A stretch of 64,000 nucleotides of DNA from positions 221,703 to 285,702 of the forward strand of contig JAKIVS010000001.1 of NCBI GenBank assembly GCA_022750435.1. Reading direction: 5' to 3'. The DNA comes from Thermoplasmata archaeon (lineage in GTDB: Archaea > Thermoplasmatota > Thermoplasmata > Lutacidiplasmatales > UBA184). Under the pieces are notes generated by a model. That model worked only from the letters and a program-made list of their open reading frames with translations. It did not search any database and had not been told where the DNA came from. This document shows positions 3,852 to 47,019 of the stretch, piece after piece (the first letter of the stretch is position 1; each line of letters begins with the position of its first letter). The position numbers were made by a program, and so were the translations under genes.

Positions 3852-3921
3852 CGGTCTGCGCCCTCGCCTCGGGGAGCGAGGCGGCGGCCGAACGGCGCCG
3901 CGTACCTAAGCTTGGGGGACC

Positions 3922-5787: not shown

Positions 5788-5913
5788 GGAGCGCTCCCGT
5801 GGTCACCGGCGGGAGGGACCGATTCCGGACGCGGCCGAACTCGTCGCACCGCCCTCCCCCTCGGGAGCGCGGTATTTCCGCCCTCCGTTCGAGTCGCGAA
5901 CGGCCGAGGCGCC

Positions 5914-7125
5914 CTATCGGGGGGCAGAACGACCGCCCGATTCGCCCGTCGGGAGACAGGCGACCGTCCTCTGGCGGAGGTCGGTCAGGGCGTTCATGTA
6001 GTTCGCATAGGCGTCGTACGGAGTACCGTAGGAACTGAAGTACCGATGGACGTCGGCGTCGGCGCCGTGGCCGCTGACGTACATGTAGTAGAAGTGGTCG
6101 GAGGTGAGCATCCAGCGCCATTCCTCGAGGAGCGTCGGGTCCCCCGCGGCCCGGACCAGCGTCCCTAGCTTCTTGGCCGCCTCAAAGGCGGACCTCTGCA
6201 GGTCGTTGCCCAGCCACGCCCCGAGGTCGCGCTTCGCGTCCGCCCAGCTGACGGTCACGGGCGAGGAGACCGCGCCGACCGGCTCGAGTTCCAGCGCGTC
6301 GTCGACGGTCGCCCAGGAGAGCCGCCGGTCGACGGACGCCGCCCGGGGAAGCGCGGAGAGGAAGTCGAGGATGCCGGTATCGGCGTGGTGGTGCTCCCCG
6401 AACGTCTCGAAATCGAGGAACAGCCCGATCATCTCGCCGGGGCTGTCGCCGAGCCATCGGACGTATTTCTCGGCGAGCAGCGGATACTCGCTCCACTCCT
6501 TCGACGAGAACCGGAAACCGATGTCGTCGCTCAGTCGGTAGTTGCGGAGGAGCATCCGCACTGTCGGCGCGCTGGCCGCACAATACATGTGGTTGGCCGA
6601 GCGCCCCTCGAGCATCCCTTCCCACCCCTCCGCCAGCATGGCCGCGTACTTTCGGGACTCCGCGAACCGGGCGAGGTCGTCCGAGAAGGCGAGCTCCGTC
6701 ATCCTCAGAACCTTCGCGTGTCCGCCGAACTGGTCGGCCAGCATGCGCGCATGGCGGTCGACCTCCTCGGCGAGTTCCGGCGGAGGGAGAAGGAACGCCA
6801 GCGAGTGGTAGTACGTCTCCCCGACGAGGGCGACATGGCCCGAGCGGACGAGCCGTTGCAGCCGTTCGAGGACGTCCGGCGCCGCCGCAGCGGCCTGCTC
6901 CACGAACGACCCCGTGATGGAGAGGCTGAATCGGAACTCGGGGAACGCCTCCGTCGCCGCCGTCAGGCGGTCGAGCGCCGGCCGGTACGCGCGCTCGGCG
7001 ATCCCGCGGAAGATCGCGAGGTTTCGTTCGCGGTCGATGTACGGGCGGCCGGAGCCGAGGTCCATGTAGCGGAACCGGGCGAGCCGCCACGGTTGGTGCA
7101 GGTGGAGGTAGAGGACGACCTTCAC
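5914..7125 (-). CDS. GH57 family alpha-glucan-active enzyme (alpha-amylase/4-alpha-glucanotransferase-like)
   Basis: Motifs LHLHQPWR and DFETFGEHH are GH57 signatures. Lies inside the 869-aa fused track ORF. Start GTG at 7125 overlaps the upstream TGA (GTGA coupling). Confidence 0.7.
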   Translation of the reverse strand: MKVVLYLHLHQPWRLARFRYMDLGSGRPYIDRERNLAIFRGIAERAYRPALDRLTAATEAFPEFRFSLSITGSFVEQAAAAAPDVLERLQRLVRSGHVALVGETYYHSLAFLLPPPELAEEVDRHARMLADQFGGHAKVLRMTELAFSDDLARFAESRKYAAMLAEGWEGMLEGRSANHMYCAASAPTVRMLLRNYRLSDDIGFRFSSKEWSEYPLLAEKYVRWLGDSPGEMIGLFLDFETFGEHHHADTGILDFLSALPRAASVDRRLSWATVDDALELEPVGAVSSPVTVSWADAKRDLGAWLGNDLQRSAFEAAKKLGTLVRAAGDPTLLEEWRWMLTSDHFYYMYVSGHGADADVHRYFSSYGTPYDAYANYMNALTDLRQRTVACLPTGESGGRSAPR

Positions 7126-8279
7126 GTTCGGCTCCGCTGCTTCGCGAGCAACTCGGCGTAGACCCCGACGGTCTGCACCACGCGCTCGGCCCACCCATCG
7201 CGGAGCGCATCGGCGCGGCCGCCCTCGCCCATCGTCCCCCGCAGTACCGGATAGACAAGAAGCTCTGCGATGCGGCTCGCGAACTCTTCCACGTCCCAGA
7301 AATCGATCGCGAAGACGTTCGAGGCGATCTCCGCCACTCCACTCGTTCGGGACAGGATCACGGGGACGCCGGCCGCCATCGCTTCCAGCGCGGCGATGCC
7401 GAACGGCTCCACGACCGACGGCAGGACGAACACGGAGGCGGAGGCGAGCAGGGAGAGCCGCTCCTCTTCCGTCACGTGACCCAGGAACAGGACCTGGTCC
7501 CCAACTCCCAGGTGGACGGCGAGGTCGATCAACCGGGGATACTCGGGACCCTCGCCCGCCACCACGAACAGGGCGTCGGGGAACGCCGGGGCGACTCTCG
7601 CCGCGGCGCGCAGGAACGTGTCGACGTTCTTGGTCGCCGTCAGGCGGCCGAGGCACAGCACGGTCCGATTCGCGGAGGCGACCGGTTCGAGCCGCGCCGT
7701 CGGGCGCACGGCGTTGTACACGACCCGCAGCCGCTCCGGCCGTGCGCCGTATCGTTCGATCAGCTGACGGGCGAGATGCTGGCTGACGGCGATGGTCATG
7801 TCGGCCTGCCGGATCCCGTACTCCTCGCGAGAGCGGAGCGACTCCGCCGGGTGACCCAGCGAGCGGTCGTACTCCGTCGAGTGGATCGTGAGGACCATCG
7901 GACAACCCAGCCGGCGGGCGAGCGCCGCGCCGCCGATGGTGCCGAACCAGTCGTGGACGTGCACGACGCTCGCATCGGCGAGTCCCTCTCGGGAAGCGAC
8001 CCAGGCATCGTATCCTTCGATCGCCTCGGCGGTCGAGCCCCGGGCGAGCTCCCCCGCGGCGTAGGCGAGAGGGTACTCGGGAACGCGCCCGCCCGCGGCC
8101 GGTTCGCCGGGGTGGCGGAACGTGACGCCCGCCACCGGGGTGAACGGGCCGGGGAACGGTGTGAGAAACGTCACACGATGACCCATGCGGGTCAGCTCGC
8201 GGCAGAGCTCGAGGCAGTGCACGCCGAGGCCGCCGGTGTGATGGGGGGGGAATTCCCACCCCACCATGACCACGTGCAT
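7122..8279 (-). CDS. GT4 family glycosyltransferase (alpha-glucan/trehalose-related)
   Basis: MHVVMVGWEFPPHHTGGLGVHCLELCRELTRMGHRVTFLTP is a typical GT4 N-terminus, followed by a C-terminal Rossmann half. The ORF stays open to 8633 through a Pro/Arg-rich, low-complexity stretch that is probably not translated. Confidence 0.65.
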   Translation of the reverse strand: MHVVMVGWEFPPHHTGGLGVHCLELCRELTRMGHRVTFLTPFPGPFTPVAGVTFRHPGEPAAGGRVPEYPLAYAAGELARGSTAEAIEGYDAWVASREGLADASVVHVHDWFGTIGGAALARRLGCPMVLTIHSTEYDRSLGHPAESLRSREEYGIRQADMTIAVSQHLARQLIERYGARPERLRVVYNAVRPTARLEPVASANRTVLCLGRLTATKNVDTFLRAAARVAPAFPDALFVVAGEGPEYPRLIDLAVHLGVGDQVLFLGHVTEEERLSLLASASVFVLPSVVEPFGIAALEAMAAGVPVILSRTSGVAEIASNVFAIDFWDVEEFASRIAELLVYPVLRGTMGEGGRADALRDGWAERVVQTVGVYAELLAKQRSRT

Positions 8280-8870
8280 CCGCCGGGCCAGCGCCGGGTC
8301 CGGGGTTGGGGCGGTGCGCTGGGGCGGGCGGCTCCAGGTCAGGTCCTTCGAGAGAGATTCCCACTCCTCGGGGCTCCGGGTCGCGGGCGACGGTGCCCGG
8401 TCGGGTCGGGCTCCGTCGACGGGCCCGGGGGCGACGGGCGGGGGCGCGGGCGTCTTCGCGGGTCCCTTCCTCACGGGATCCAGCTCTTTTCGCGGCGCGC
8501 TCATGGGTGCGAACTCCGGCCACCGACGGCCGGGCGATCCCCCAGAGAAATCGGCCCGGCGCCCACCGGAAAATTGTCCCCTACCTCCAGGGTCGGCATC
8601 GTCGGTGGGCTTCCGAGACCGCCCGGGGGTCAAGTGGTTTCGCCGTCGGCACCGGGGACGTCGGAACGGCTTCGGGACCCGCGGAAAGACGTCGGGCGGA
8701 CGTCAGCGATTGGCCGGGACGCCGAGGACTTGGAGTCCGACCCGGCTCCCGGACACGCCGAACCCTCGCGGTGTCGCTCCGCCGGCGAAGCGGGGACGTT
8801 CGGACGCTCCTCCGCGCCGCCAAGCCTAAGCGTCCGGACGCCTCCGAAGCGGCATCAACACCGCCCCGCC

Positions 8871-10370
8871 ATGGTCAATCGGAAATGGGTCGTCCTTAGC
8901 AACACCACGATCGGGACCCTCATGGCGTCAATCGACGCCTCGATCGTCCTGATCAGTCTCCCCACGATCGGGCGTCAGCTCCCCGACACCGGCCCGGCGA
9001 TCTTGCTCTGGGTGATGCTGTCGTACAGCGTCGTGACCACCACCCTGCTCCTCTCGTTCGGCCGCCTTTCCGACATGTACGGACGGGTCCGGCTCTACAC
9101 TCTCGGGTTTGCGGTGTTCACGATCGGCTCGGGGGTCGCCAGCCTTTCGCAGACGGGCCCGGAACTCCTGATCTCTCGGGTCGTCCAAGGCACGGGGGCC
9201 GCCTTCCTCTGGTCGAACTCCGCCGCTCTCCTCACCGACGCCTTTCCGGTGGGGGAGCGGGGAAAGGCGCTCGGGATCAACCAGGTCGCCGCCCTCTCCG
9301 GGTCCGTCATCGGGCTGATCCTCGGGGGGATCCTCACGACGACCCTCGGGTGGCGCTCCATCTTCTGGGTCAACCTCCCCATCGGCGCCTTCGGCACCAT
9401 CTGGGCGTACGTCGCCCTCCGGGAGATGCACGCCCCCGAGCGGGACGTCCCGATCGACTGGGTCGGGAACCTTTCGTTCGGGGGCGGCCTGACCCTGTGC
9501 CTCGTGGGGCTGACGATCGGTGCGCTCGCCGGCTGGACGAGTCTCTTCGTCGTACTCTCCGTCCCGCTCGGACTGCTCCTGCTCGTCGTCTTCGTGGTGA
9601 CCGAGCAGCGCGTCGAGCACCCGATGTTCGACCTTTCGCTGTTCCGGATCCGTACGTTTCTCGCTGGGAACGTCGCCGCCGCCTTGGCGGCCCTCGGCCG
9701 TGGGGCGTTCTCGTTCGTGATGGTGTTCTACCTGCAGGGGGTGTTGGGCGACAGCGCGCTCACGGCCGGGGTCCTCCTCATCCCCCTCTCGGTCGCGTTC
9801 GTCGTGACGGGCCCGCTCAGCGGGGCCATCTCGGACCGTCGGGGGGCGAGGGGTCTCGGCACGATCGGTCTCTTGGTCGGGGCCGTCGGGTTCGCCGTCC
9901 TGCTCCAGTTCCCGGCCGGCGGCTCCTACACTCTCCTCGGCGGAGCGATGGCGCTCCTCGGGCTGGGCCAGGGGATGTTCGCCGCGCCGAACCGCGCGGA
10001 GGTGATGACGAGCGTACCGGCCGCCCGTCGGGGGATCGCCGCCGGCATCGGGACCACGCTCCTCAACGCCGGTTCTCTCGGCTCCTTGGCCCTCGCCTTC
10101 ACGGTACTCGCCGCCTCCGTCCCACGTTCCACCCTGACGGAGATCTTCAGCGGGACCGGCGGGGCGATCGTCGATGCCGGCTCGTTCATGAACGGCCTCC
10201 ACGTCTTGTTCGCGATCGGCGTCGCCCTGATGGTCCTCGCCGCGATCGCGAACTCGCTTCGCGGAACGACCGAGCATGCGCCGGCGTCCGGGGACGGCGT
10301 GCCGCGCTCCACTTCGCCGTCGGAGTTTCCGTTGCTGCGGGTTCACGACGGAACCTCGGGGTCCAAATAG
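8871..10370 (+). CDS. MFS transporter (drug:H+ antiporter-like, ~14 TMS)
   Basis: ATG at 8871 (MVNRKWVVLSNTTIGTLMASIDASIV...). Multiple hydrophobic helices and GxxxDxxGRR-like loop motifs. Confidence 0.75.
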   Translation: MVNRKWVVLSNTTIGTLMASIDASIVLISLPTIGRQLPDTGPAILLWVMLSYSVVTTTLLLSFGRLSDMYGRVRLYTLGFAVFTIGSGVASLSQTGPELLISRVVQGTGAAFLWSNSAALLTDAFPVGERGKALGINQVAALSGSVIGLILGGILTTTLGWRSIFWVNLPIGAFGTIWAYVALREMHAPERDVPIDWVGNLSFGGGLTLCLVGLTIGALAGWTSLFVVLSVPLGLLLLVVFVVTEQRVEHPMFDLSLFRIRTFLAGNVAAALAALGRGAFSFVMVFYLQGVLGDSALTAGVLLIPLSVAFVVTGPLSGAISDRRGARGLGTIGLLVGAVGFAVLLQFPAGGSYTLLGGAMALLGLGQGMFAAPNRAEVMTSVPAARRGIAAGIGTTLLNAGSLGSLALAFTVLAASVPRSTLTEIFSGTGGAIVDAGSFMNGLHVLFAIGVALMVLAAIANSLRGTTEHAPASGDGVPRSTSPSEFPLLRVHDGTSGSK

Positions 10371-10392: not shown

Positions 10393-11118
10393 ATGAACGA
10401 ACCACCGTGGGTCCGATACGAGGGGGAGGGATTCCGCCGGGAGCTCACGACGTTCAAGATGGCGAACCACCCGTTCCGCACGCACCCGTTCTTCCAAGAG
10501 ATCGAGCGCGGCCAAGCTCCGGTCGCGACGGTCCAGCGGTGGGTCGGGCAGTTCTACCCCTGGCTCGCGTGCGTGCCGATCGCCATGGCGGAGCGGTTCG
10601 CACGCTGCTCGTACGAGCCTTCGAACGACCGGTTCCGGACGATGATCCTCGACCAGCTGCTCGAGGAGGCCGGCGACCCGAAGGGGAAGGCCCCGGGGCA
10701 CCCGGAGCTGTGGCTCCGATTCTGCGAGGGGATCGGCGTCCCGCGCGCCACCGTCCTCGCGACCCCGCACCTGCCGAGTACGCTCGTCGCCATCGACGAC
10801 TTCCTGTACATCAACCGCGAATCGCCGTTCTACATCTCCGCGGCAGGCTCCTCCGAGCCCCCCAACGTGGAGCTTTGCCAGCGCCTCTATCCGGCGTTCG
10901 CGAAACACTACAAAGTCCCGGAGGAGGCGCTCGAGTACTACCGGCTGCACGTCACCGCCGACGAAGAGCACAGCCGGTTCGTCGGCGAAATGGTGGCAGC
11001 GTTCGCGCACACCGTGGAGATTCGCAAGCAGATGTGGGACACGATGCTGCGCGGCTTCGCGTTGCACGCCCTCCTGGTCGACGGCGTCCTGGCGACCACC
11101 CGGACCGCCGGGTCGTGA
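10393..11118 (+). CDS. PqqC/TenA/CADD-like heme-oxygenase-fold protein
   Basis: Recalled similarity to PqqC: HPFFQEIERGQAPVATVQRWVGQFYPWL vs PqqC [27 protein letters not shown], and GHPELWLRFCEGIGV vs IEAWLRLGEAVGL. Sits at the head of the shikimate operon. Confidence 0.6.
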   Translation: MNEPPWVRYEGEGFRRELTTFKMANHPFRTHPFFQEIERGQAPVATVQRWVGQFYPWLACVPIAMAERFARCSYEPSNDRFRTMILDQLLEEAGDPKGKAPGHPELWLRFCEGIGVPRATVLATPHLPSTLVAIDDFLYINRESPFYISAAGSSEPPNVELCQRLYPAFAKHYKVPEEALEYYRLHVTADEEHSRFVGEMVAAFAHTVEIRKQMWDTMLRGFALHALLVDGVLATTRTAGS

Positions 11119-11152
11119 ACCGGCGGAGCACGCCGCCCGGCGAGCGTCCGCG

Positions 11153-11911
11153 ATGAACTACGGCACCACGATCCGACTCCGCCGGTTGTTCCCTCGCGCT
11201 GGGCGACGGCTCTTTTCGGTTCCGTTGGACCATTCCGTCTCGATGGGCCCGATCGACGGGCTCGAGGCGACCGGACCGGTCGCGGCCACGCTCCAGGACG
11301 CCGGTGTCGATCTCTTGATCGTCACGAAGGGCGCGGTCCGCGACGTCGCGAACGACCTCCGCCCCGGGACCCTCCTCGGGGTGCACGTGTCGGCGTCGAC
11401 GTCCCTCGGCCCGACCTCGAACCACAAAGTGCTGGTCGGAACCCCCGCCGAAGCGGTCGGCCTGGGGGCCGACCTGTTGAGCGTCCAGGTGAACTTCGGC
11501 ACTCCCGAGGAGGGAGCGATGCTCCAGGACCTCGGGACCGCGGTGGACGGGTGCCGGTCGCTCGGCCTCCCGCTCCTCTGCATGGCCTACGTCAAAAAGC
11601 CGGACGGAGCCCCGACGGCCGACGAACTTCGGCACGCCTGTCGAGCGGCGGCAGACCTCGGGGCCGACATGGTCAAGACCAGCTATCCGGGCACGCTCGA
11701 AGAGCTTCGTCGCTTGGTTCGCACGACGCCGGTCCCCGTCCTCCTCGGCGGCGGGGCCAAGACGAGCGACGATGCGGCGTTCCTCGCGGTCGTGCGCGAG
11801 ACGATCGAGGCGGGAGCCGGTGGCATCTGCATCGGCCGCAACCTGTTCCAACGGCAGCCCCTCGGCCCGCTGGCCCGCCAGGTCGCCCAGTTGCTCCACG
11901 GGACAGGCTGA
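11153..11911 (+). CDS. aroA': 2-amino-3,7-dideoxy-D-threo-hept-6-ulosonate synthase (ADH synthase, archaeal AroA'; class I aldolase DhnA family)
   Basis: DhnA-type class I aldolase fold, 252 aa. Immediately upstream of AroB' as in archaeal DKFP-pathway gene pairs. Confidence 0.7.
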   Translation: MNYGTTIRLRRLFPRAGRRLFSVPLDHSVSMGPIDGLEATGPVAATLQDAGVDLLIVTKGAVRDVANDLRPGTLLGVHVSASTSLGPTSNHKVLVGTPAEAVGLGADLLSVQVNFGTPEEGAMLQDLGTAVDGCRSLGLPLLCMAYVKKPDGAPTADELRHACRAAADLGADMVKTSYPGTLEELRRLVRTTPVPVLLGGGAKTSDDAAFLAVVRETIEAGAGGICIGRNLFQRQPLGPLARQVAQLLHGTG

Positions 11912-11924
11912 CTCCGGGGTCGCC

Positions 11925-12944
11925 GTGTCGTCCGACCGCATCATCGTTCACCCTGTCCACCCGGATCCGAGGGTCCGGGCCGAGGTCGTTGCGCAGGCGT
12001 ACCGGCGCGGCTTTCGCAGGTTCGCCATCTCCGAGAGAGACTCCCTCCCCGACGGGGTCGAACGGGTGACCGTCACCGACACGGAGTACCGTTCTCCGGA
12101 CGGAGCGAGACTCCTTCGTCGCGACGTGGAGAACGCGGCGGCGCTCGCGGATGCGATTCGGGAGGCGAAGAGCACCGGCGGCGTCGCACTTCGTTGGACC
12201 TCGGACCGCGTGATCCCGCTCGAGAACACGATCGCCCACCACCGAGGTTCGTTCCGGCTCTGGACCACCACTTCGCGGCCGGAGGAGGTTCCGGGGCTGT
12301 TGGGCGCCCTCGAGCATGGGGCGGATGCGGTCGTCGTGGAACTCCGGACCCCTGAGGAGGTCGACCGACTGGAGGCGCTCCTCGACGCCCGGGCTCGGCC
12401 GCCGGTCGCGTGGACGCTCGGACGGGTCGTTCGGGTCACCCCCGTCGGTCTCTCCGACCGCGTCCTCCTCGATACGACGTCCCTGCTCACGGAGTCGGAG
12501 GGCGTGCTGGTCGGCAGTCGCGCGGCCGCCCTCTTCCACCTGCGGAGCGAGGCGCTCGGCTCGGCGCACTCCCGCCCCCGACGGTTCCGGGTGAACGCGG
12601 GAGCCCCCCACTCCTACGTTCTGATGGCGGACGGCTCCACCCGGTATCTTTCGGAGCTCGAACCCGGCGAGGAACTCCTCGCCGTCGACCGGACCGGCAC
12701 GACGCGCGGGGTTCGCCTCGGGCGCCTCAAGATCGAGCGCCGTCCGACGGTGCTCCTCGAGGCGTCCGTGGGTCCGGCCCGCGCCATCGTGTTCGTCCAG
12801 GAGGCCGAAACCGTTCGGTTGTCCGGGGTCTCCGGCGCCCTCTCGGTGACGTCCCTCTCCGTCGGAACCGACGTACTCGTGGCGGACCTGCCTCCGGGCC
12901 GCCACCTCGGCCACGCGATCGACGAAACGATCGAGGAGCGATGA
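11925..12944 (+). CDS. aroB': 3-dehydroquinate synthase II (archaeal AroB')
   Basis: Strong match to M. jannaschii MJ1249 recalled from memory: FRVNAGAPHSYVL, RYLSELEPGEELLAVDRTGTTRGVRLGRLKIERRPTVLLEA. GTG start at 11925 inferred. The track ORF start at 11772 overlaps aroA'. Confidence 0.85.
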   Translation: MSSDRIIVHPVHPDPRVRAEVVAQAYRRGFRRFAISERDSLPDGVERVTVTDTEYRSPDGARLLRRDVENAAALADAIREAKSTGGVALRWTSDRVIPLENTIAHHRGSFRLWTTTSRPEEVPGLLGALEHGADAVVVELRTPEEVDRLEALLDARARPPVAWTLGRVVRVTPVGLSDRVLLDTTSLLTESEGVLVGSRAAALFHLRSEALGSAHSRPRRFRVNAGAPHSYVLMADGSTRYLSELEPGEELLAVDRTGTTRGVRLGRLKIERRPTVLLEASVGPARAIVFVQEAETVRLSGVSGALSVTSLSVGTDVLVADLPPGRHLGHAIDETIEER

Positions 12945-14440
12945 ATCCCCGGCCCCGTCTGATCGTGACGCTGCCGGCGCGGACGGTGGCCGAGGTCCGT
13001 TCGCAACGAGGGGTGGCCGTCCATGCCGGGGCGGACGTCCTGGAGGTCCGGGTCGACCGATGGACCTCCGAGCAGCGCTCCCGGGTCGGCCAACTGTTCC
13101 CGAGTCCCGTGCCCCTTCTGGCGACGCTCCGATCCCAAGCAGAAGGCGGAGAAGGACCCAACGATCCGACGGAGCGGGCCACCTGGATCGAGCAGGTCGC
13201 CGGTCACCCATTCGCCTGGATCGACCTCGAGCTGGAGCGAGACCCGCCTCCGACCCCCGGGCACGCCGGGACGCCTCCGCGCTGGGTCGGCTCCCGGCAC
13301 TTCCCGGCGGAGACACCGCTTCCCGTCCTGGAGGATTCGATTCGAGCGTCTCCCGAGCGATTCGCGTTCACCAAATTTGTCGTGCCCGCCTCGGTCGAAC
13401 GGTACTATCGGGAGATCCGGCCCCGGCTCCCCGAGTGGGTCGGACCTCGGACCACGGTGTTCACCACGGGCCCGTCCGGCCCGCTCGGCCGACTCTGGGC
13501 GCGCGAGCTCGGGCAACCGGTCGTGTTTGCCTCGTTGCCTCTCGACGACGTCGCTTCGACCGGTCCTCCCGTCGAGCCCGCGCAAGTGCCCGTCGACCAA
13601 CTGCACCGGAGTTGGGCGGTCGAGCCGGGTCGGAAGTTCGCCGTCGTGGGCCATCCGATCGCCCACAGCCTCTCGCCCACCATCCACGCCGGTTGGTTGG
13701 CGACCGAGCGCCGCGCCGCCAGCTTCGTGGACGTGGACGTCGCCAGCGCCGAGGAGCTGCGGCTTCTGGCGGATCCCGCGACCGGCGAACGTTGGGATGG
13801 CTGGAGCGTCACGGCGCCATGGAAGTCGCTCCTCCCCGGAATCGCCGACCACTGCAGCGATTCGGTCGTCGCCACGGGGGTGGCCAACACCGCCGCGTTC
13901 GGTGAGCAAGGGACCTCGGTCGATTTGACCGATGCGGAGGCGGTTCGCCGCCGATCCCTCGAGTTGGTCGGGGAGGGCGCCTGGGATGGGACCGAGGCCC
14001 TGGTGCTCGGCACTGGGGGCTCGGCCCGAGCGGCCCTCTACGCGCTCGCACCGAAGCGTCGGACGGTCCACCTCCTCGGACGGCGTGCCGAGGCCGTGGA
14101 ACGTCTCTCGAAGGAGTTGGGCGGTCGCCCCGCGAACCCACGGGACCGGCACGCGGTGGGGCTCGTCGTGCACGCGACGACCTTCGGGCGGGCCGGCTCC
14201 GGCCCCCTCGCACTGGACGTGGACGGGTGGGTGGGACCGGGCACGACCGTCCTCGATTTCGTGTACGCTCCGGAGGATTCCACGCTCCGCCGGAGGGCGG
14301 AGTCGCTCGGGGCGCGCTACGAGGATGGGCGCCGCCTCCTGGTGTACCAGGCCGCCGACGCCCACCGGATCTGGTGGGGCGAAGCTCCCTCCGAAGCCGC
14401 CGTGGCGTCCGCCTTGCGGAGGGTCGGATGCGCGGCGTAG
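12941..14440 (+). CDS. aroDE: Bifunctional 3-dehydroquinate dehydratase (type I) / shikimate dehydrogenase, in-frame AroD-AroE fusion
   Basis: ATG at 12941 overlaps the aroB' stop (ATGA). N-terminal ~210 aa is a type I DHQase (FTKFVVPA Lys region). C-terminal part has FAVVGHPIAHSLSPTIHAGW, typical of AroE. No stop between the two domains. Confidence 0.75.
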   Translation: MNPRPRLIVTLPARTVAEVRSQRGVAVHAGADVLEVRVDRWTSEQRSRVGQLFPSPVPLLATLRSQAEGGEGPNDPTERATWIEQVAGHPFAWIDLELERDPPPTPGHAGTPPRWVGSRHFPAETPLPVLEDSIRASPERFAFTKFVVPASVERYYREIRPRLPEWVGPRTTVFTTGPSGPLGRLWARELGQPVVFASLPLDDVASTGPPVEPAQVPVDQLHRSWAVEPGRKFAVVGHPIAHSLSPTIHAGWLATERRAASFVDVDVASAEELRLLADPATGERWDGWSVTAPWKSLLPGIADHCSDSVVATGVANTAAFGEQGTSVDLTDAEAVRRRSLELVGEGAWDGTEALVLGTGGSARAALYALAPKRRTVHLLGRRAEAVERLSKELGGRPANPRDRHAVGLVVHATTFGRAGSGPLALDVDGWVGPGTTVLDFVYAPEDSTLRRRAESLGARYEDGRRLLVYQAADAHRIWWGEAPSEAAVASALRRVGCAA

Positions 14441-15297
14441 GCGCAGGCACCGCCGCGATCTCCTTCGTGAACGCGCTCTTCACGGGCACTGGCGCGGCGG
14501 CCGCCATCGGCATCACGGCGACGGCGACCGTCGAACTCCAGCCGGCCCCCCACGCCGGACATATCGTCCTGGAGGCGCCCTCGGACACACCGCTGGCGCG
14601 GGCGTCCGTACTCGATGCGATCCGCCGCTACGGCGACGCCACCGAGGTCGACGCCCGGATCCGGATCGATTCGGCGATCCCCGTCGCCAAGGGCCTGAAG
14701 AGCTCCTCCGCGGTGGGCGTCGCCATCGCGCGGGCGGTCGCCGCGGCGTACGGGCGGAACCCGACCGACGAAGAGGTGGCCCGAGCGTCCGCGGAGGTTT
14801 CGCAGACTCTCGGCGTGAGCGCTACCGGCGCCTTCGACGACGCGCTCGCTTCGGCCGCGGGTGGCGTCGTGGTCACCGACAACCGGAGCCGGCGCGTACG
14901 GCTGCGGGGCTTCGTCGACCCCGACTGGGCCCTCGTCCTCTGGACACCATCGGGCACCCACGCTCTGAGCCCCGCATGGACCGAGCGATTCGCCGCAGAA
15001 CGGGTCACGGCCCTCGCGGCGGTCGAGGCGGCGGAGCGCGGGGAGTGGCTCACAGCGCTCTCGGCCAACACCGAGATCGTCGAGCGGGTGATGGGGTACG
15101 ACTATCGGCCGCTCCGTCGAGCGCTCGAGCGCTCGGGAGCGTTGGGGAGCGGGGTCAGCGGGCTCGGACCTGCGCTCGCGACCATCGCGCCCCGCGCCCG
15201 ACTCCGAGACGTCCTGCGGGGCCACCCGGCCGGAACGGCGGCCGTGGCCGCGGCGGAGTTCGTCCCCCCCGACCCTCGAGGGAGCGGTTCGGGATGA
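14428..15297 (+). CDS. aroK: Archaeal shikimate kinase (GHMP-kinase family)
   Basis: MRGVGAGTAAISFVNALFTGTG...KGLKSSSAVGVAIARAV is the GHMP motif. 289 aa. Overlaps aroDE by 13 nt. Confidence 0.8.
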   Translation: MRGVGAGTAAISFVNALFTGTGAAAAIGITATATVELQPAPHAGHIVLEAPSDTPLARASVLDAIRRYGDATEVDARIRIDSAIPVAKGLKSSSAVGVAIARAVAAAYGRNPTDEEVARASAEVSQTLGVSATGAFDDALASAAGGVVVTDNRSRRVRLRGFVDPDWALVLWTPSGTHALSPAWTERFAAERVTALAAVEAAERGEWLTALSANTEIVERVMGYDYRPLRRALERSGALGSGVSGLGPALATIAPRARLRDVLRGHPAGTAAVAAAEFVPPDPRGSGSG

Positions 15298-16565
15298 GCG
15301 TCCGTCGGGTACGCCCCGGAATCGCGGCCGGCCGCCTCCGGGCTCCTCCCTCCAAGAGCTACACGCACAGGGCGGTCTTGGCGGCGCACTTCGTCGGGCA
15401 CCGATACCGGATTGAGGATCCCTTGGTCGCCGACGATACTCTGGCCACCCTCCGGGCGGTCCGCGCCCTCGGCACGGCCGGGACACGCCGCCGCGGCCGG
15501 TGGGAGCTGGCACCCGGAGCGGTCCCGAAGCTTCAGCGGGTCATTGATTGCGGCGAGTCGGGAACGACCCTCCGTTTCCTCCTGCCCGCCGCCGCTCGTC
15601 TCTCCTCCCCCGTGCGATTCGCGCTCGGTCCGGGGCTCCGTCGGAGACCGCTCGCCCACGGCCTCGCCGCCCTGCGGGCCGCGGGAGCGCGCGTGACGGG
15701 CGACGGCCGGTCCCCGAAGTTTCTGGATGTCCGCGGACCCATCCATCCGCTCCACGGGACGGTCGACGCGTCCGAGAGCTCCCAATTCCTCTCCGGACTC
15801 CTCTACGCGCTTCCCGGTCTCCCGAGCTCGTCGGTTCTGAGCCGAGTCGGCTCGATCGTCTCCGAGCCGTACTTGGAAGCGACGGTTCGGATGCTGGCCG
15901 CCCACGGAGTAACGGTGCATCGTCACGGTCGACGGTTCGAGGTCCCGGCCCCCCAGGAATTCTCCGGAGCACGGTTCCGAGTTCCGGGGGACGCGTCGTC
16001 GGCCGCCTACCACTGGGCCGCCGCGGCGGCCACGGGGGGGTCGGTCACGGTCGAGGGTATCTCCCCCGAGTGGCCCCAAGCGGACCTCGCGATCCTGACG
16101 GCCCTGGCGAACGCCGGGGTCGAGGTGCGCCGGCGGGCCCGCTCGGTGACGGTCTCCGGGCGCCCGCAGCGCCCGCTTCGGGCGGATCTCGACGGCAGCC
16201 CGGACCTCCTGCCTCTCCTCGGCGTGCTCGCCGCGACGACCGTCGGCACGTCGCGATTGCGGGGCGCCGCGCACGCCGGGGCGAAGGAATCGAATCGTCG
16301 CCGGGAGACGGCGAAGCTCGCACGGGCAATGGGCGCCCACGTGTCGACCGGTCCCGCGGTCGTGGCGATCACCGGGACGGACCGCCCGAGCAGCTTTTCC
16401 TACGACGGGGCCGGCGACCATCGGATGGTGATGAGCGCCGCCGTCGGAGCGCTGGTGGGGAAATCGGCCTCTCGCATCGGCTCGGCGGAGACGGTCCGCA
16501 AGTCCTACCCTGAGTTCTGGTCCGACTTCCACCAACTCACCGGCGCCGCGGAGGGCGGCCGATGA
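15294..16565 (+). CDS. aroA: 3-phosphoshikimate 1-carboxyvinyltransferase (EPSP synthase)
   Basis: KSYTHRAVLAAHF and DHRMVMSAAVGAL motifs. ATGA overlap with aroK. Confidence 0.85.
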   Translation: MSVRRVRPGIAAGRLRAPPSKSYTHRAVLAAHFVGHRYRIEDPLVADDTLATLRAVRALGTAGTRRRGRWELAPGAVPKLQRVIDCGESGTTLRFLLPAAARLSSPVRFALGPGLRRRPLAHGLAALRAAGARVTGDGRSPKFLDVRGPIHPLHGTVDASESSQFLSGLLYALPGLPSSSVLSRVGSIVSEPYLEATVRMLAAHGVTVHRHGRRFEVPAPQEFSGARFRVPGDASSAAYHWAAAAATGGSVTVEGISPEWPQADLAILTALANAGVEVRRRARSVTVSGRPQRPLRADLDGSPDLLPLLGVLAATTVGTSRLRGAAHAGAKESNRRRETAKLARAMGAHVSTGPAVVAITGTDRPSSFSYDGAGDHRMVMSAAVGALVGKSASRIGSAETVRKSYPEFWSDFHQLTGAAEGGR

Positions 16566-17647
16566 TGACCTATGGGACCCGGTTCCGGGTGACTCTCTTC
16601 GGGAGCAGCCACGGGCCCGAGGTCGGGGCGGTCATCGAGGGAGTTCCGGCGGGTCGACCCGTCGATGCGGCGATTCTCCAATCGGCCCTGGACCGTCGAC
16701 GACCCGTCGGACGTCGCCTCGCGAGCCGCCGCCAGGAAGAGGATCGACTGATCCTGGACGAGGGGGTCGAAGACGGCGTCGCCACGGGCGCCCCCATCCG
16801 GCTGCACGTCGCGAACACGGACGTCCGCCGGTCGGACTACGACGGGATCCGTTCGACGCCGCGCCCGGGGCACGCCGACTATCCGGCGCGCCTCCGCTAC
16901 GGGGAGGCCGCCGACCTGTCCGGCGGCGGAATTTTCTCAGGGCGGATGACGGTGGGCCTCGTCGCCGCAGGAGCGATCGCGTCGACGTGGTTGCGAGAAA
17001 TCGGTGTCGAGGTCGTCGGGTACGTCCGTTCCATCGCCGACGTGACCGCCACGGTCGACGAGGGAATCCCGATCGGGGACCTCCGGTCGGCCCGGGACCG
17101 GAATGAGGTCGGCTGCCCCGACGATGGGGTCGCAACGCAGATGGCCGAGCGAATCGCGGACGCGCGGCGGGCGGGCGACAGCGTCGGGGGCATCGTCGTC
17201 GTGCGAGCCGCCGGAATCCCGGTCGGCATCGGGGAGCCGTTCTTCGATTCGGTCGAGAGCGCGATCGCCCATCTCGCCTTTTCCGTTCCGGCAGTGAAGG
17301 GGGTCGAGTTCGGGGCCGGGTTCGCCTCCGCCCGGATGCGGGGAAGCGAACACAACGATGCGTTCTACCTCGACGGCGGGACCGTGCGGACACGGACCAA
17401 CCACGCGGGGGGCATTCTCGGAGGGTTGACCGACGGGATGGACGTCGTCGCCCGGTTCGCGGTCAAGCCGACGTCGTCGATCGCCCGACCTCAAGAGACC
17501 GTCGACCTCGCTCGGCGGGCCGGCACCACCATCGTAGTTCCCGGCCGGCACGACCCGTGCATCGTGCCGAGGGCTGTGCCCGTCCTCGAGGCCGTCGTCG
17601 CGATCGCCATCGCGGACCTCGCGCTGCGCAGCGGGGCGCTCCGATGA
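16562..17647 (+). CDS. aroC: Chorismate synthase
   Basis: MTYGTRFRVTLFGSSHGPEVGAVIEGVPAG is the canonical AroC N-terminus. ATGA overlap with aroA. Confidence 0.85.
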   Translation: MMTYGTRFRVTLFGSSHGPEVGAVIEGVPAGRPVDAAILQSALDRRRPVGRRLASRRQEEDRLILDEGVEDGVATGAPIRLHVANTDVRRSDYDGIRSTPRPGHADYPARLRYGEAADLSGGGIFSGRMTVGLVAAGAIASTWLREIGVEVVGYVRSIADVTATVDEGIPIGDLRSARDRNEVGCPDDGVATQMAERIADARRAGDSVGGIVVVRAAGIPVGIGEPFFDSVESAIAHLAFSVPAVKGVEFGAGFASARMRGSEHNDAFYLDGGTVRTRTNHAGGILGGLTDGMDVVARFAVKPTSSIARPQETVDLARRAGTTIVVPGRHDPCIVPRAVPVLEAVVAIAIADLALRSGALR

Positions 17648-18702
17648 GACGGGGCGAGTTTCGGCCGGCGATCCTCGGTGCCTCCGGCTACATCGGACAA
17701 CACTTTGCCCGCCTGCTCGCCCGCCACCCGACGTTCGCCGACCCGATCCTCGTGACGAGCGAGCGGTCGGCGGGCCGGCGACTCGAGGACGTTTGGGCGC
17801 TCACCGAGGCCGCGCCGTCGGTCCTGGCACGGCAGCGTCTGCGCGCGGCTTCCCCTCGGACCCTCGCGGCGCTCGGCGTCAATCTCGTCTTCTCCGCATT
17901 GCCGTCGGGCGTGGCCCGTTCCACGGAAACCGCGGTGGTCACCCGGGGGATCCCGGTCTTCACCAACGCCGCCGACCATCGCGGTGACCTCGGTGTTCCG
18001 CTCGTCGTGCCCGAGGTCAACCCCGGCGAGCTTCGCCGCTCGGCGCGACGGCCCCGCGGCTCGGCCCTCCTGGTCGCGAACCCGAACTGCACCGCCACCG
18101 GACTTGCGCTCGGCCTCGCGCCCGTGTGGAACCTGCTGGCTCCCCGCGAGGTCCACGTCAGCACCTACCAGGCCCTGTCGGGGGCCGGACTTCCCGGCCT
18201 CGCCGCCGGGCACGGCCTCGACAACGTGGTTCCGTACATCGACGGAGAGGAAGAGAAGGTGGCGGGCGAATCGCTCCGCATCCTTCACGGCGGCGGCGCC
18301 GCGACCGCCCGGACGCGGGTTCTCGTCCACGCGGCCCGGGTCCCCGTCCGAGATGGCCATCTGGAGGCGGTCACGATCGTGGCGCGCCGGCGGCCAACTC
18401 TCGACCAGCTCCGTCGGGCGTGGAGGGGGTTCGACCCACTCGCCGAACGCGCACTCCCGACTTCTCCCCATCCGCCGGTCGTCGTTCGGGACGAGGCCGA
18501 TCGGCCTCAGACGCGGCTGGACCGATGGGCGGGCACGCCGGCCCGGGCCCGGGGCATGGCGGCGGTCGTCGGACGGGTCCGCTGGGAGCCCCCCTACCTG
18601 CGACTCTTCCTTCTGAGCCACAACGCGGTCCGGGGGGGAGCGGGTGGCTCCGTGCTCAACGCCGAACTCGCCCTCGCGGATGGGATGTTGGCCGCCCGAT
18701 GA
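17644..18702 (+). CDS. asd: Aspartate-semialdehyde dehydrogenase
   Basis: ILGASGYIGQ NAD(P) motif and catalytic ANPNCTATG. ATGA overlap with aroC. Confidence 0.8.
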   Translation: MRRGEFRPAILGASGYIGQHFARLLARHPTFADPILVTSERSAGRRLEDVWALTEAAPSVLARQRLRAASPRTLAALGVNLVFSALPSGVARSTETAVVTRGIPVFTNAADHRGDLGVPLVVPEVNPGELRRSARRPRGSALLVANPNCTATGLALGLAPVWNLLAPREVHVSTYQALSGAGLPGLAAGHGLDNVVPYIDGEEEKVAGESLRILHGGGAATARTRVLVHAARVPVRDGHLEAVTIVARRRPTLDQLRRAWRGFDPLAERALPTSPHPPVVVRDEADRPQTRLDRWAGTPARARGMAAVVGRVRWEPPYLRLFLLSHNAVRGGAGGSVLNAELALADGMLAAR

Positions 18703-20123
18703 ACCGTCGCCGCTCCCGCCCCGTCGTCGTCAAGTTCGGCGGCGCGGCACTCGCCGACGTCGCCGCCGTGGCCGCCCGGATCCGGAGCCTCTCCTCCGAC
18801 GGCGCACCGCTCGTGGTGGTCGTGTCCGCGCGGGAAGGGGTCACCGACCGGCTCCTCGCGGCGTGCGAGCCCAGGGCCACGAGCGCCGGCATCGACCGGA
18901 CCCTCCGATGGGTGCGCGACCGTCACCCAGGTTCCGGCGTCGCCGGCGAACGGCACCTCGCCGAGCTCGAACGCGGCCTCCGCAGCGGGGCGGTCGGTTC
19001 CCCCGCTCGCACCGACCGGATCCTGGCGATCGGAGAACGGCTCGCGGTCGACTGGCTCGTGCCCGCCTTGCGTTCGTTGGGGATCGACTGTGTCGGCGTA
19101 GACGCCGCCGCGCTCGGCTTGTGGACGGACGGTCGTCACGGTGGGGCGCTCATCGACCTCGACCAGTCCCGGGGTCCGGTGCGCGCGGGACTCGGCGCCC
19201 TGCTGGCGCGCGGCACCGTCCCGATCGTCACCGGATTCCTTGGACGCGGACGGCACGGAGAGCCGGTCACGTTGGGCCGGGGCGGTTCGGACTACTCGGC
19301 GAGCGCCATCGCGGCCCTCCTGGAGGCCCGCTTCGTGGAGTTGATGAAGCCCGAAGCCTCGATCCTCTCCGCCGACCCTTCGATGGTGTCGGCGGCCCGT
19401 CCGATTCCCTACCTCACGTACGCCGAAGCGGAGGAGCTGGCCGAGTTCGGGGCTCGCGTTCTCCACCCGATGACCGTCGAACCGGCGCGCCGGCACGGAG
19501 TCGAGATCCGGGTCCGCTCGATGCGGCGACCGGACGAACTCACCGTCGTCGGTCCCGCGGCCGCGGCATCCGTCGGCGTGCGAGCGCTGACCCTCTCCCC
19601 GACGGTCCACTTGTTCCGACTGCGATTCCCGGGCGGCCGGCGACGCCCGGGCGTTCTCGCCGAGTTGTGCGCGCGGCTCGCCGAGGCCGGGGTGCCCGTC
19701 CTGCAGGCGTTCACCTCGGCCGCTGTCGTCTCGGTCGTGGTGGAGACCCATCGGAGTTCGAGCGCCGGGCCGGTGTTGGGCCGATTGGTCGAGGCCCGGG
19801 GGGCGCACCTGGAACCCGCCGTCCCGGTCGTCCTCCTCGCCGCCGTCGGGTCCGGAGCGATTCGGGAACTCGCCCGCGTTCCTCCCGAGGTTCTCGCGGT
19901 GGGGCGGGGAGTCAGCGCGACCCGCGCGAGCGTGACGATCGCCGTGCCGGTCGAAGACGGGCAGCGCGCGCTCCGAGCCCTCCACACCGTCCTAATCGAG
20001 CGGGGGCCGACGCTCCGGCGAGCCCGGCCCGCGGTCCGTCGTCCTTTTGGCCCCCGACCGGGTCGCGCCCCCCGCCCGAGCCCGGCAGCGCGCCGACGTT
20101 CGGGAGGCAAGGCTCCTGCGTGA
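18699..20123 (+). CDS. Aspartate kinase
   Basis: VVVKFGGAALADVAAV...VVVVSAREGVTDRLL amino-acid kinase fold. C-terminal ACT-like region plus an Arg/Pro-rich tail. ATGA overlap with asd. Confidence 0.75.
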   Translation: MNRRRSRPVVVKFGGAALADVAAVAARIRSLSSDGAPLVVVVSAREGVTDRLLAACEPRATSAGIDRTLRWVRDRHPGSGVAGERHLAELERGLRSGAVGSPARTDRILAIGERLAVDWLVPALRSLGIDCVGVDAAALGLWTDGRHGGALIDLDQSRGPVRAGLGALLARGTVPIVTGFLGRGRHGEPVTLGRGGSDYSASAIAALLEARFVELMKPEASILSADPSMVSAARPIPYLTYAEAEELAEFGARVLHPMTVEPARRHGVEIRVRSMRRPDELTVVGPAAAASVGVRALTLSPTVHLFRLRFPGGRRRPGVLAELCARLAEAGVPVLQAFTSAAVVSVVVETHRSSSAGPVLGRLVEARGAHLEPAVPVVLLAAVGSGAIRELARVPPEVLAVGRGVSATRASVTIAVPVEDGQRALRALHTVLIERGPTLRRARPAVRRPFGPRPGRAPRPSPAARRRSGGKAPA

Positions 20124-20767
20124 AGACGTTCGTCAAGCTCTCCGGACTCACCGACCTCGACTCCGTCCGACTCGTCCCCGACGGGGGGGCCGCCGGGTTC
20201 CTCGTGGGGGTCCCAGGCTCTCCCCGCAACCTCGCCCCGGCCCGCGCCGCGGAGCTCGTGGCCGAGGTTCCGGCGGGCGCGGAGGTGTGGGCCGTCGCGC
20301 GCGCCCCCTCCGCCGAGCTGATCCACCAATTGTTCGACGAGGTCGGCGTCGACCGCGTTCAGGTGTTCGGCCCGGTCCCGGAGGGGCTCGAGTTCCTCGA
20401 GATGCACCACCTCGTACCGTCGCTCGCCATCCCTCGGGCCGGTACGGAAGGCGCCGAGCCGAAGGTACCTCCGGCCGAAGATTTCTCCCGGTTGCATCTC
20501 GACGCCGTCGGCGACCCGGCCATGGACGGAAGTGCCGAGCGACCGGACTGGGAAATGTGCGCCCGCATCGTGGACGGGCAACCGGGTCGGAAGCTCACCC
20601 TCGCGGGGGGTCTCACGGCCGAGAACGTGGCGGAGGCGTTGGCGGCGGTCCGGCCCTGGGGCGTGGACGTTACCGTCGGGGTCGAGATGGCTCCGGGCCG
20701 CAGCGACCCGGCGCGAGTGGCGGCGTTCCTCGCCGCCCTCGAGACGACCGAGTCCGGCGGGGCCTGA
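20120..20767 (+). CDS. trpF: N-(5'-phosphoribosyl)anthranilate isomerase
   Basis: GTG start overlapping the aspartate kinase stop (GTGA). VKLSGLTDLDSV...FLVGVPGSPRNL...VDRVQVFG is a TrpF TIM-barrel pattern. Confidence 0.7.
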   Translation: MKTFVKLSGLTDLDSVRLVPDGGAAGFLVGVPGSPRNLAPARAAELVAEVPAGAEVWAVARAPSAELIHQLFDEVGVDRVQVFGPVPEGLEFLEMHHLVPSLAIPRAGTEGAEPKVPPAEDFSRLHLDAVGDPAMDGSAERPDWEMCARIVDGQPGRKLTLAGGLTAENVAEALAAVRPWGVDVTVGVEMAPGRSDPARVAAFLAALETTESGGA

Positions 20768-20794: not shown

Positions 20795-22303
20795 CTACTC
20801 GTCGCCGCGGGCCATCACGGGGACGGCAGATTCGACTCCGCCGTGTCCCCGCTCCGGGGAGGCTGCCGGACGCCCGGTCCCCGTGGAGTTCGGGAGCCCG
20901 AAGGCACGGACCTTGCCATCGGCGCAACCCTCCACGACGACCCCGTGGCCGACCGACGGGGCGGAGAGGAATCCGGCGGGACAGGTGAACGTCTTCAGGA
21001 CGGCCCCGTTGAGGGCCTCGATCACGCTGAGCACGTGACCCGCCGGCACGAACAGGAGCCCGTTCGCCGTCGTGGGCGCACCGAATCCGCCCGAGGAGAG
21101 CGCGTCCTTCCAGATCACGTGGCCGGTGGCGGGAGCGAGCGCCTCGACGCTCCCGTTGACGAGCTTCCCGGCGACCTTCGTCTCCCGGGTGGCGACGAAT
21201 AGGAGTCCCTGCGCGAAAGCGGCCGGCTCGACCGAGCTCGCGTGGGAGAGCATCCCGTACCAGACCGGTCCCTTCGAGAGGTTCGTACGATTCAGGGTGT
21301 AGAAGAAGCCGTTCTTGTTGATCGCCCCGACGAGCGGAGCGCCCGCCCGGTCCTGGAACAGCGTCGGCGTCGCCCCGAAGTCGCCGTCGAAGATCGACTC
21401 GTTGGCCGGAACGTCCCAGTACGACTCCACCGCGAGCGTGGTGGCGTTCACGGCGATCATCGCCTGGGTGTAGTTCGTGCCGTCGGTGGCATTCGGCGGG
21501 TTCCCCGTGGTCACGTAGATGGTGTTGCGCGCCACGTCGAGCGACGGCGAACTCCAGATGCTCCCGCCGAGCATCGTGGGGGAGACCGTGCGGAACAGGT
21601 GGTCGAGGGTACCGTTCGAGGCGTCGAGCTCGTACAATCCTCCCGGAACGAGCGGCATGTCGCACAGGCTCGCCGCCCCGACGTAGACGTGACCGTCCCA
21701 GACGAGGGGGCTCGACCAGGAGTAGTACCCGTTCAGCGGCGAGCCCTGTGTGTACATCCAGACGACCTTGCCGTTCGTCGCGTTGAGGGCCCAGTAGGTG
21801 CCGTTGCCGCCGCCGACGTAGACGGTGTTCCGGTAGATGGTCGCGCTCGAGCTGACGCCGATCGTGACCTTGGTGGGGCAGTAGGCACTGACCCCGAGGA
21901 ACGTCTTCCACACGATGGCGCCCGTGAGGAGGTTGTACGCCGTGAAGTTCCCGTCCCACGAGCCGATGTAGGTCCGGTCGCCGACGATGGCCGCCGACGC
22001 GGCGACGGACCGGTGCGTGGTGGCATTCCACAGCTCCACCATTGAAGGGGCGTTCGACACGTTGAGGACGTCGTCGCCGATGTTCGCCGACGTGCGCTGG
22101 TCGTTTTGCAGGTACGTCGGCCAGTCGTGACCGGGAAGGACCGTGGGCGTGGACAGGGAGGCGAGGTGCGCGCTCGGTCCCGCCCCGCTTCCGACGGCGG
22201 CGACGATCGGGGAACCGAAGCCGCTGAGGAGAAGCAGGAGCGTGGCGGCCAGGGTGACGACGAGTACGGGCATCGGGGAGGGAACGCGGAACGTCATGGC
22301 CAT
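20795..22303 (-). CDS. Secreted PQQ-repeat beta-propeller glycoprotein
   Basis: Start at ATG 22303 (MAMTFRVPSPMPVLVVTLAATLLLLLSG, signal/anchor). Repeated W-containing propeller blades. More than 10 NxS/T sequons. The track ORF has an extended RG-rich N-terminus that was rejected. Confidence 0.65.
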   Translation of the reverse strand: MAMTFRVPSPMPVLVVTLAATLLLLLSGFGSPIVAAVGSGAGPSAHLASLSTPTVLPGHDWPTYLQNDQRTSANIGDDVLNVSNAPSMVELWNATTHRSVAASAAIVGDRTYIGSWDGNFTAYNLLTGAIVWKTFLGVSAYCPTKVTIGVSSSATIYRNTVYVGGGNGTYWALNATNGKVVWMYTQGSPLNGYYSWSSPLVWDGHVYVGAASLCDMPLVPGGLYELDASNGTLDHLFRTVSPTMLGGSIWSSPSLDVARNTIYVTTGNPPNATDGTNYTQAMIAVNATTLAVESYWDVPANESIFDGDFGATPTLFQDRAGAPLVGAINKNGFFYTLNRTNLSKGPVWYGMLSHASSVEPAAFAQGLLFVATRETKVAGKLVNGSVEALAPATGHVIWKDALSSGGFGAPTTANGLLFVPAGHVLSVIEALNGAVLKTFTCPAGFLSAPSVGHGVVVEGCADGKVRAFGLPNSTGTGRPAASPERGHGGVESAVPVMARGDE

Positions 22304-40009: not shown

Positions 40010-40015
40010 GCGAGG

Positions 40016-41221: not shown

Positions 41222-41223
41222 GG

Positions 41224-46868: not shown

Positions 46869-47019
46869 CGCGCGTCCCCTCCGAAGCTCTCGCAAGAAGT
46901 CCGGGGGATAACCGTTGCCCCCGGGCCGGCCGTCGACCGGGGCCGTCCGGCGAGCGAGGGTTTATCGGCGCCGGTCCCCCATCGCAATCCCGCGGGCCGC
47001 GGCGCGGTCCGACGCGTTC

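Follow-up and report, generated by a model that had tools for sequence, protein, structure and literature searches.

Characterised heme-oxygenase-like dimetal oxidases (HDOs) carry a set of three histidine and three carboxylate ligands and oxidise small molecules, and a reaction is known for about a dozen of more than 10,000 HDO sequences, all of them described from bacteria (PMC13108848). UndA, BesC, HrmI, FlcD, SznF and AetD belong to bacterial natural-product or hydrocarbon pathways (PMC13108848), and DtpC of Acinetobacter baumannii, a protective factor with an HDO-type domain, needs its ligand residues for a physiological role beyond natural-product synthesis (PMC13232832). CADD and NePabS are self-sacrificing 4-aminobenzoate (pABA) synthases: CADD Tyr27 is cut from the backbone to give the pABA ring, the Y27F exchange abolishes pABA formation (PMC9522330) and Lys152 is the amine donor (PMC13108848), while Tyr25, Tyr41 and Lys159 are all essential in NePabS (NE1434) (PMC11965152). 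CADD (CT610) makes pABA in E. coli aroA, aroB and aroD mutants by a route independent of shikimate intermediates (PMC4161248), and its orthologues are located in folate clusters (PMC9522330, PMC4161248). Here we describe an HDO gene in a 64,000-nucleotide stretch of a Thermoplasmata archaeon (GenBank assembly GCA_022750435.1, contig JAKIVS010000001.1, positions 221,703 to 285,702 of the forward strand; hereafter the window), where it stands directly before a shikimate (aro) operon. The original prediction had made it a CADD-like pABA synthase. Our analysis places the protein in a known enzyme superfamily, as an archaeal branch that is still uncharacterised, and its residues and predicted structure suggest, with moderate confidence, a two-metal enzyme that uses activated O2 to oxidise a free small molecule, like other non-sacrificial HDOs.

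The predicted open reading frame (ORF) was confirmed on the forward strand, with its ATG at 10393 and its stop codon ending at 11118. Its G+C content at third codon positions (GC3) is 0.91, the codon bias of a genuine gene, in a window of 70% G+C. Pfam PF14518 (Haem_oxygenas_2) matches residues 49–223 (6.5e-17), and PF03070 (TENA/THI-4/PQQC) gives a partial match to residues 29–143 (1.1e-9). An AlphaFold2 model built with 40 homologues is all-helical, with a predicted local distance difference test (pLDDT) score of 90.5 and a predicted template modelling (pTM) score of 0.87. The best solved structure found with Foldseek was PqqC with bound pyrroloquinoline quinone (PQQ; template modelling score (TM) 0.83, root-mean-square deviation 2.0 Å), followed by CADD (TM 0.75) and an uncharacterised Shewanella protein (3dde). 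Catalytic HDOs such as UndA, HrmI, FlcD and BesC matched at TM 0.70–0.80, and TenA proteins (TM 0.66–0.74, 9–12% identity) and true heme oxygenases ranked lower. Thus, Pfam, the model and Foldseek agree on a seven-helix heme-oxygenase-like fold, as had been predicted, and the proposed affinity also holds, the protein being closer to CADD and PqqC than to TenA.

The metal site was compared with that of CADD using the CT610 reference sequence, which is 100% identical to PDB 1rcw_A, and a bridging alignment of 124 sequences (L-INS-i) that leads from the HDO family through to CADD and NePabS. Residue conservation was scored over 200 unique family sequences, 70–93% identical. Each of the six CADD ligands has its counterpart (Table 1), and all six positions are conserved in 199–200 of the 200 sequences, so that the 3-His/3-carboxylate primary ligand set of the HDO superfamily is complete. 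In a five-sequence MAFFT alignment Glu155 was shifted by two residues from CADD Glu142; this placement was overruled by HMMER (via PqqC) and by the 124-sequence alignment.

The residues that CADD and NePabS consume or depend on are a different matter. Phe34 occupies the position of the sacrificial tyrosine, Trp50 that of the second essential tyrosine (CADD Tyr43) and Leu165 that of the amine-donor lysine, each without exception among the 200 sequences. Comparison with CADD, which the original prediction had named as its own check, therefore recovered the metal ligands and failed for Tyr27, Tyr43 and Lys152. In effect, the HDO protein looks like a natural Y27F/K152L variant of the pABA synthases.

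We propose that Glu92, His103, Glu155, His186, Asp190 and His193 would bind two metal ions, Fe/Fe or Fe/Mn, and that the reduced metal cluster would activate O2. The resulting oxidant would attack a diffusible small-molecule substrate held in the helical bundle, by C–H or N–H oxidation or C–C cleavage as in other catalytic HDOs, and the protein's own side chains would not be its target. By analogy, the catalytic HDOs that act on free substrates were adopted as the working model for the family. UndA, BesC, HrmI, FlcD, SznF and AetD have the same fold and ligand motif and likewise no sacrificial residues, and the O2-dependent small-molecule chemistry would be common to both; however, they are only 11–19% identical to the HDO protein, whose archaeal family has one copy per genome, is found almost throughout one order and lies among primary-metabolism genes. 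DtpC, which is larger and bacterial, is likened to the HDO protein by description only.

A word-indexed protein search returned 275 relatives. The best 120 were 70–90% identical, and the organism-named members among them were Thermoplasmata or Thermoplasmatota metagenome-assembled genomes (MAGs). An exhaustive search of 1.84 billion 50%-identity representatives yielded one full-length cluster representative (70% identity) and fragments, beyond which identity fell sharply to 34% or less (E about 1e-19), indicating that the HDO family is an isolated clade. Similarly, a scan of one genome per GTDB species gave 152 relatives; of the best 80, virtually all came from Thermoplasmata MAGs, with Candidatus Lutacidiplasma silvani and further genomes from acid soils among them. 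The family is thus confined to Lutacidiplasmatales-like Thermoplasmata. Genomes of this order have been described as having about 69% G+C and, in most cases, complex IV, with a predicted aerobic or facultative lifestyle (PMC9287336), which fits both an O2-dependent enzyme and the composition of the window. The HDO gene is also the most conserved gene of its neighbourhood, with a median identity to the window copy of 74%, compared with 71% for ADH synthase (2-amino-3,7-dideoxy-D-threo-hept-6-ulosonate synthase), 65% for chorismate synthase and 42–50% for most other aro enzymes. An archaeal enzyme that nearly all members of one aerobic acid-soil order possess, that is better conserved than the aro enzymes and that is located among primary-metabolism genes is probably a housekeeping enzyme rather than part of a natural-product pathway. 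The nearest outgroup HDOs (27–34% identity) were found on contigs of only 1–3.5 kb. One such distant homologue (P0130, 27% identity; L087:188-3468) lies directly 5′ of an FAA-hydrolase gene and two genes for LigB-type extradiol dioxygenases, an aromatic ring-cleavage context on a single short contig.

Upstream of the HDO gene we observe a conserved promoter-like module. In the window, a palindrome falls inside the 3′ end of the coding sequence of the preceding major facilitator superfamily (MFS) transporter gene and is followed by a TATA-like box. Within the window the exact palindrome occurs only once, and one-mismatch matches are at chance level; about 50 related loci have an exact copy at the corresponding distance from the HDO start, and the others a near-exact one. 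Among 85 aligned upstream regions the TATA-like box is conserved as CCAAATA(G/T), and the module of a GAGGTTC-N6-GAACCTC palindrome, a TATA-like box and an ATG about 22 nt further on occurs in all three gene arrangements described below. Read with archaeal promoter geometry, this spacing points to an HDO mRNA with no leader or almost none. The palindrome is a putative site of a dedicated DNA-binding regulator and the TATA-like box a putative promoter.

Neither a TATA-like element nor a leader ORF is present between the HDO and ADH synthase genes, and a scan of this spacer together with the last 150 nt of the HDO gene found no A/T-rich element. With the promoter-like module upstream and no A/T-rich element in the spacer, the HDO gene is plausibly the first cistron in the window, where it probably starts a transcript running into the aro operon. 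In this model, the HDO gene would be under its own operator and TATA box, and a leaderless transcript would continue into the ADH-route aro genes. The predicted position as first gene of a shikimate operon is therefore borne out for the layout of the window, with the qualification that a same-strand MFS gene lies just upstream, yet the palindrome and TATA-like box stand immediately before the HDO start codon. An Rfam scan of the window and three related loci gave no match.

The aro operon itself is a shikimate cluster of the archaeal, aspartate-semialdehyde/ADH type and is complete; most of its genes are joined by 4-nt overlaps. The genes for aspartate-semialdehyde dehydrogenase, aspartate kinase and phosphoribosylanthranilate (PRA) isomerase are part of the overlapping string, which fits an ADH route that depends on aspartate semialdehyde. 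No evident candidate for supplying the second ADH-route substrate, 6-deoxy-5-ketofructose-1-phosphate, was seen in the window.

Table 1. Coordinates of the HDO gene, its predicted functional codons, its control elements and the adjoining genes in the window
Feature	Position	Strand	Remarks
HDO coding sequence	10393..11118	+	ATG start, 241 aa, HDO family
Phe34 codon	10492..10494	+	position of sacrificial CADD Tyr27 / NePabS Tyr25; Phe in 200/200
Trp50 codon	10540..10542	+	position of essential CADD Tyr43 / NePabS Tyr41; Trp in 200/200
Glu92 codon	10666..10668	+	predicted metal ligand, CADD Glu81; 200/200
His103 codon	10699..10701	+	predicted metal ligand, CADD His88
Glu155 codon	10855..10857	+	predicted metal ligand, CADD Glu142; inside invariant SSEPPN motif
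Leu165 codon	10885..10887	+	position of amine-donor CADD Lys152 / NePabS Lys159; Leu in 200/200
His186, Asp190 and His193 codons	10948..10971	+	predicted metal ligands, CADD His174, Asp178 and His181
DHA2/EmrB-type MFS efflux transporter gene	8871..10370	+	22 nt 5′ of the HDO gene
Palindromic operator-like site	10340..10355		GGTTC-N6-GAACC, GGTTCACGACGGAACC; 38-53 nt 5′ of the HDO ATG; putative
TATA-like box	10363..10370	+	CCAAATAG; contains the MFS stop codon TAG; centre about 27 nt from the ATG; putative promoter
Spacer between HDO and ADH synthase genes	11119..11152	+	34 nt, G+C-rich
Archaeal shikimate (aro) operon	11153..20767	+	Pfam and NCBIfam matches; boundaries by GC3-based gene calling
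ADH synthase	11153-11911	+	
3-Dehydroquinate (DHQ) synthase II	11925-12944	+	
aroD-aroE fusion	12941-14440	+	
GHMP shikimate kinase	14428-15297	+	
5-Enolpyruvylshikimate-3-phosphate (EPSP) synthase	15294-16565	+	
Chorismate synthase	16562-17647	+	
Aspartate-semialdehyde dehydrogenase (asd)	17644-18702	+	
Aspartate kinase	18699-20123	+	
PRA isomerase (trpF)	20120-20767	+	

We surveyed the genomic context in 85 loci, including a species-representative set (L005–L084) in which 78 species had enough flanking sequence to be assessed. In 70 of these 78 the aro genes, in unchanged order, come directly 3′ of the HDO gene. Outside the window's own clade, essentially every locus carries a divergent gene pair for a family-III CoA-transferase and an acyl-CoA dehydrogenase (ACAD) that starts 87–130 nt 5′ of the HDO gene (e.g., L001:5447-7908, minus strand). 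Replacement of this pair by the MFS gene is limited to the window and the four loci most closely related to it (L005–L008, 86–93% identity). In a rough tree of the HDO sequences, each gene arrangement corresponds to one or a few clades. The adjacency to aro genes, together with roughly two dozen probable operon fusions, suggests a link to aromatic metabolism that is not universal; likewise, the shared divergent promoter region suggests a link to the CoA-transferase and ACAD that is not universal either. A role tied to aromatic metabolism is possible, and we put it forward tentatively.

Several observations weigh against the link to the aro operon. Eight of the 78 species keep the HDO gene without aro genes within 10 kb, and in these the CoA-transferase/ACAD pair is kept as well. 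Where the pair is present, the palindrome lies between two divergent TATA-like boxes, which suggests that the pair and the HDO gene could be co-regulated. In 46 of the 70 aro-linked species the spacer between the HDO and ADH synthase genes is about 190–210 nt long and contains a separate control region, so that the HDO gene and the aro operon appear to be under different control elements in these species. The layout of the window, with the HDO gene as first gene, is hence a lineage-specific fusion, in which the aro genes have lost a promoter and leader of their own, and not a family-wide feature. Even in the window, the case for co-transcription consists of the spacing and the missing A/T-rich element. 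Moreover, the window genes past the operon (tRNA-intron endonuclease, phosphoribosyltransferase, CarS, M20 peptidase, DUF2070, PcrB and UbiA) come after the HDO gene in the eight aro-less species, too. Since unrelated genes such as those for the tRNA endonuclease, CarS and PcrB are syntenic as well, the adjacency of the aro genes may be inherited rather than functional.

These points make up much of the case for an HDO that is unrelated to the shikimate pathway, i.e., one that is independently regulated and acts alone or as a partner of the CoA-transferase and ACAD, with the aro adjacency merely inherited. Such an enzyme could act on an organic or amino acid, by oxidation or cleavage, to give a product for CoA activation and subsequent desaturation, or it could have a DtpC-like protective or metal-related role, for which DtpC offers the precedent (PMC13232832). 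We regard this explanation as possible but somewhat doubtful. The window's clade has lost the CoA-transferase/ACAD pair but has kept the HDO gene, the operator and the aro linkage. The remaining 24 aro-linked species have either a short, leaderless spacer of 21–141 nt (22 species) or an inserted chorismate mutase/prephenate dehydrogenase gene (2 species), and in the former, expression of the essential aro genes may rely on the HDO promoter, so that regulation would have to be compatible. Furthermore, the best matches of the CoA-transferase (CaiB-like) and the ACAD (cyclohexanecarboxyl-CoA-dehydrogenase-like) in NCBIfam and PDB searches are below every curated family cutoff.

Two further genes were noted in these contexts. 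In eight species, a gene for a 266-aa protein stands in place of the aro operon (L003:8833-9633; equivalents in L015, L025, L027, L028, L029, L033, L034 and L049). The protein has an N-terminal helix-turn-helix (HTH)-like segment and weak rubrerythrin/ferritin-like similarity, with HTH_3 and other matches all below the Pfam cutoffs, and no homologue was found in the window; it could be a candidate regulator that binds the palindrome. The inserted gene between the HDO and ADH synthase genes (L010:4815-5945, minus strand, and L009) encodes a chorismate mutase (CM_2)/prephenate dehydrogenase-like fusion.

The separate control region of the 46 species has a conserved order. At the HDO stop codon stands a near-invariant TAAATAG box, followed about 22–26 nt downstream by an invariant ATG, a short ORF and GC hairpins (examples from alignment A3: L045:10727-10947, L052:10722-10942 and L062:10723-10943). 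The leader ORF has 18–27 codons, varies in length only by multiples of three and is unconserved in its body, while its end always reads Trp-(Leu/Ser/Pro)-Trp-stop. The hairpins are conserved with compensatory changes (GC/AU/CG): the region of the start codon is paired with the stretch immediately preceding the Trp codons, and the segment after the leader stop can pair either locally or with a distal CTTCCCTC, which is otherwise complementary to the Shine-Dalgarno-like GGAGG before the ADH synthase gene. In addition, 73 metagenome contigs (L089–L161) carry the leader element always directly upstream of the ADH synthase gene; the 34-nt spacer of the window lacks it. The element is a candidate Trp-codon leader peptide or attenuator before an archaeal shikimate operon, and Rfam gave no match to it. 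We are aware of no archaeal case of demonstrated leader-peptide attenuation, and a search of the literature brought up none. Although confined to relatives of the window, this leader may be a more unusual observation than the HDO itself.

In a narrower version of the aromatic link, the HDO would work as a catalyst, without sacrificing itself, and convert a free aromatic amino acid or shikimate-pathway intermediate into pABA or a different essential aromatic, for instance 4-hydroxybenzoate. The metal site is intact, inert residues at the sacrificial positions are what an external substrate would lead one to expect, both of the closest characterised families make precursors of aromatic cofactors, and no pab gene was seen in the window. 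Even so, we consider this specific assignment unlikely.

The self-sacrificing mechanism originally predicted, in which the protein's own tyrosine is cleaved by radical chemistry to give pABA and a lysine donates the amine, fares worse and is in our view very improbable. The CADD family TIGR04305 is the best NCBIfam match (2e-18), and the HDO family profile matches NePabS (9pj4) with 51 bits (1.4e-12), close to PqqC (53 bits) and above CADD (30 bits). The likeness extends to the fold, to identical positions of the three histidines and three carboxylates and to a similar length, and other invariant residues (Tyr55, Tyr173, Tyr182, Tyr183 and Lys22) might in principle be candidates for sacrifice. 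The absence of canonical pab genes had been correctly predicted: no pabABC or folate genes were found within the 64-kb window (of a genome of about 2 Mb). However, the TIGR04305 score of 66.8 bits is one third of the cutoff of 200, identity to CADD and NePabS is only 16–21%, and the loop before the His103 ligand is four residues longer than theirs. Above all, Phe, Trp and Leu are found in 200 of 200 sequences at the three positions that are all essential in NePabS and the first of which, exchanged in CADD as Y27F, abolishes activity. The surroundings differ as well, with archaeal aro or CoA-transferase genes in place of a folate cluster, and the flanks of related loci contain no folate or pab genes. 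The operon position, which had served as an argument for pABA synthesis, carries no mechanistic weight because the CADD route bypasses shikimate intermediates, and in most relatives the HDO gene is a transcription unit of its own or has no aro operon next to it. The supplements of the Lutacidiplasmatales paper have no pqqC, pabB or folP entries, and our literature search found no paper connecting archaea, HDOs and pABA.

Many family members are named PqqC by JGI, but a PqqC-type cofactorless oxidase finishing PQQ synthesis is barely conceivable. PqqC gives the best structural match as well as the best PDB sequence and profile matches, and the longer loop before His103 (helix 103–113) is common to both proteins. 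Against this, TIGR02111 scores 54.3 bits compared with a cutoff of 240, and of the PqqC active-site residues His154, Tyr175 and Arg179 (the mutants named in the PDB titles 3hml, 3hlx and 3hnh), which align to Cys162, Tyr182 and the ligand His186, only the tyrosine is retained. PqqC has no metal cofactor and deviates at three of the six ligand positions, whereas the HDO family keeps all six, and the window and the flanks of about 20 kb in related loci contain no pqqA, pqqB, pqqD or pqqE gene. A gene just past the aro operon (20795-22303, minus strand) encodes a protein of 502 aa that contains PQQ_2/BamB-like beta-propeller repeats and partly matches PF01011. This could be taken as a sign of PQQ use; yet the protein mainly matches PF13360, a BamB-like family, and is probably a propeller-repeat protein rather than a quinoprotein, and no such gene lies beside the HDO gene in type B loci.

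A TenA-type thiaminase II or thiamin-salvage hydrolase, or the "TenA family transcriptional regulator" of some NCBI records, has next to no probability: the partial PF03070 match and the TenA homologues in the fold search speak for it, but PF14518 is stronger and spans the whole domain, the TenA structures come far down the ranking, after PqqC, CADD and the catalytic HDOs, the neighbourhood has no thiamin genes, and the six metal ligands conserved in the HDO family are, to our knowledge, missing from TenA enzymes.

Elsewhere in the window, a glycogen/starch-type cluster (1458-8300, minus strand) contains two GH15 glucoamylase/glucodextranase-like genes, a GH57 gene and a GT4/GT5 glycosyltransferase gene with a starch-synthase-like N-terminus. 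A metal-uptake transporter operon of the Mn/Zn/Fe type (ZnuA/ABC-3/ABC_tran; 38226-41257, minus strand) may bear on metal supply and is unlinked to the HDO gene in related loci. GC3-based calling also gave four very large ORFs of 1488, 1373, 968 and 974 aa (41891-46357, minus strand; 46915-51036, plus strand; and 56358-62507, plus strand).

Whichever substrate a catalytic HDO of this kind may use, the family offers a natural contrast for asking what turns an HDO into a suicide enzyme. If the protein were a catalytic synthase of pABA or another aromatic, it would supply the missing pABA route in this archaeal lineage and fill a long-standing gap in archaeal cofactor biosynthesis, and it would explain why the HDO gene and the aro operon are fused in about a third of the species.

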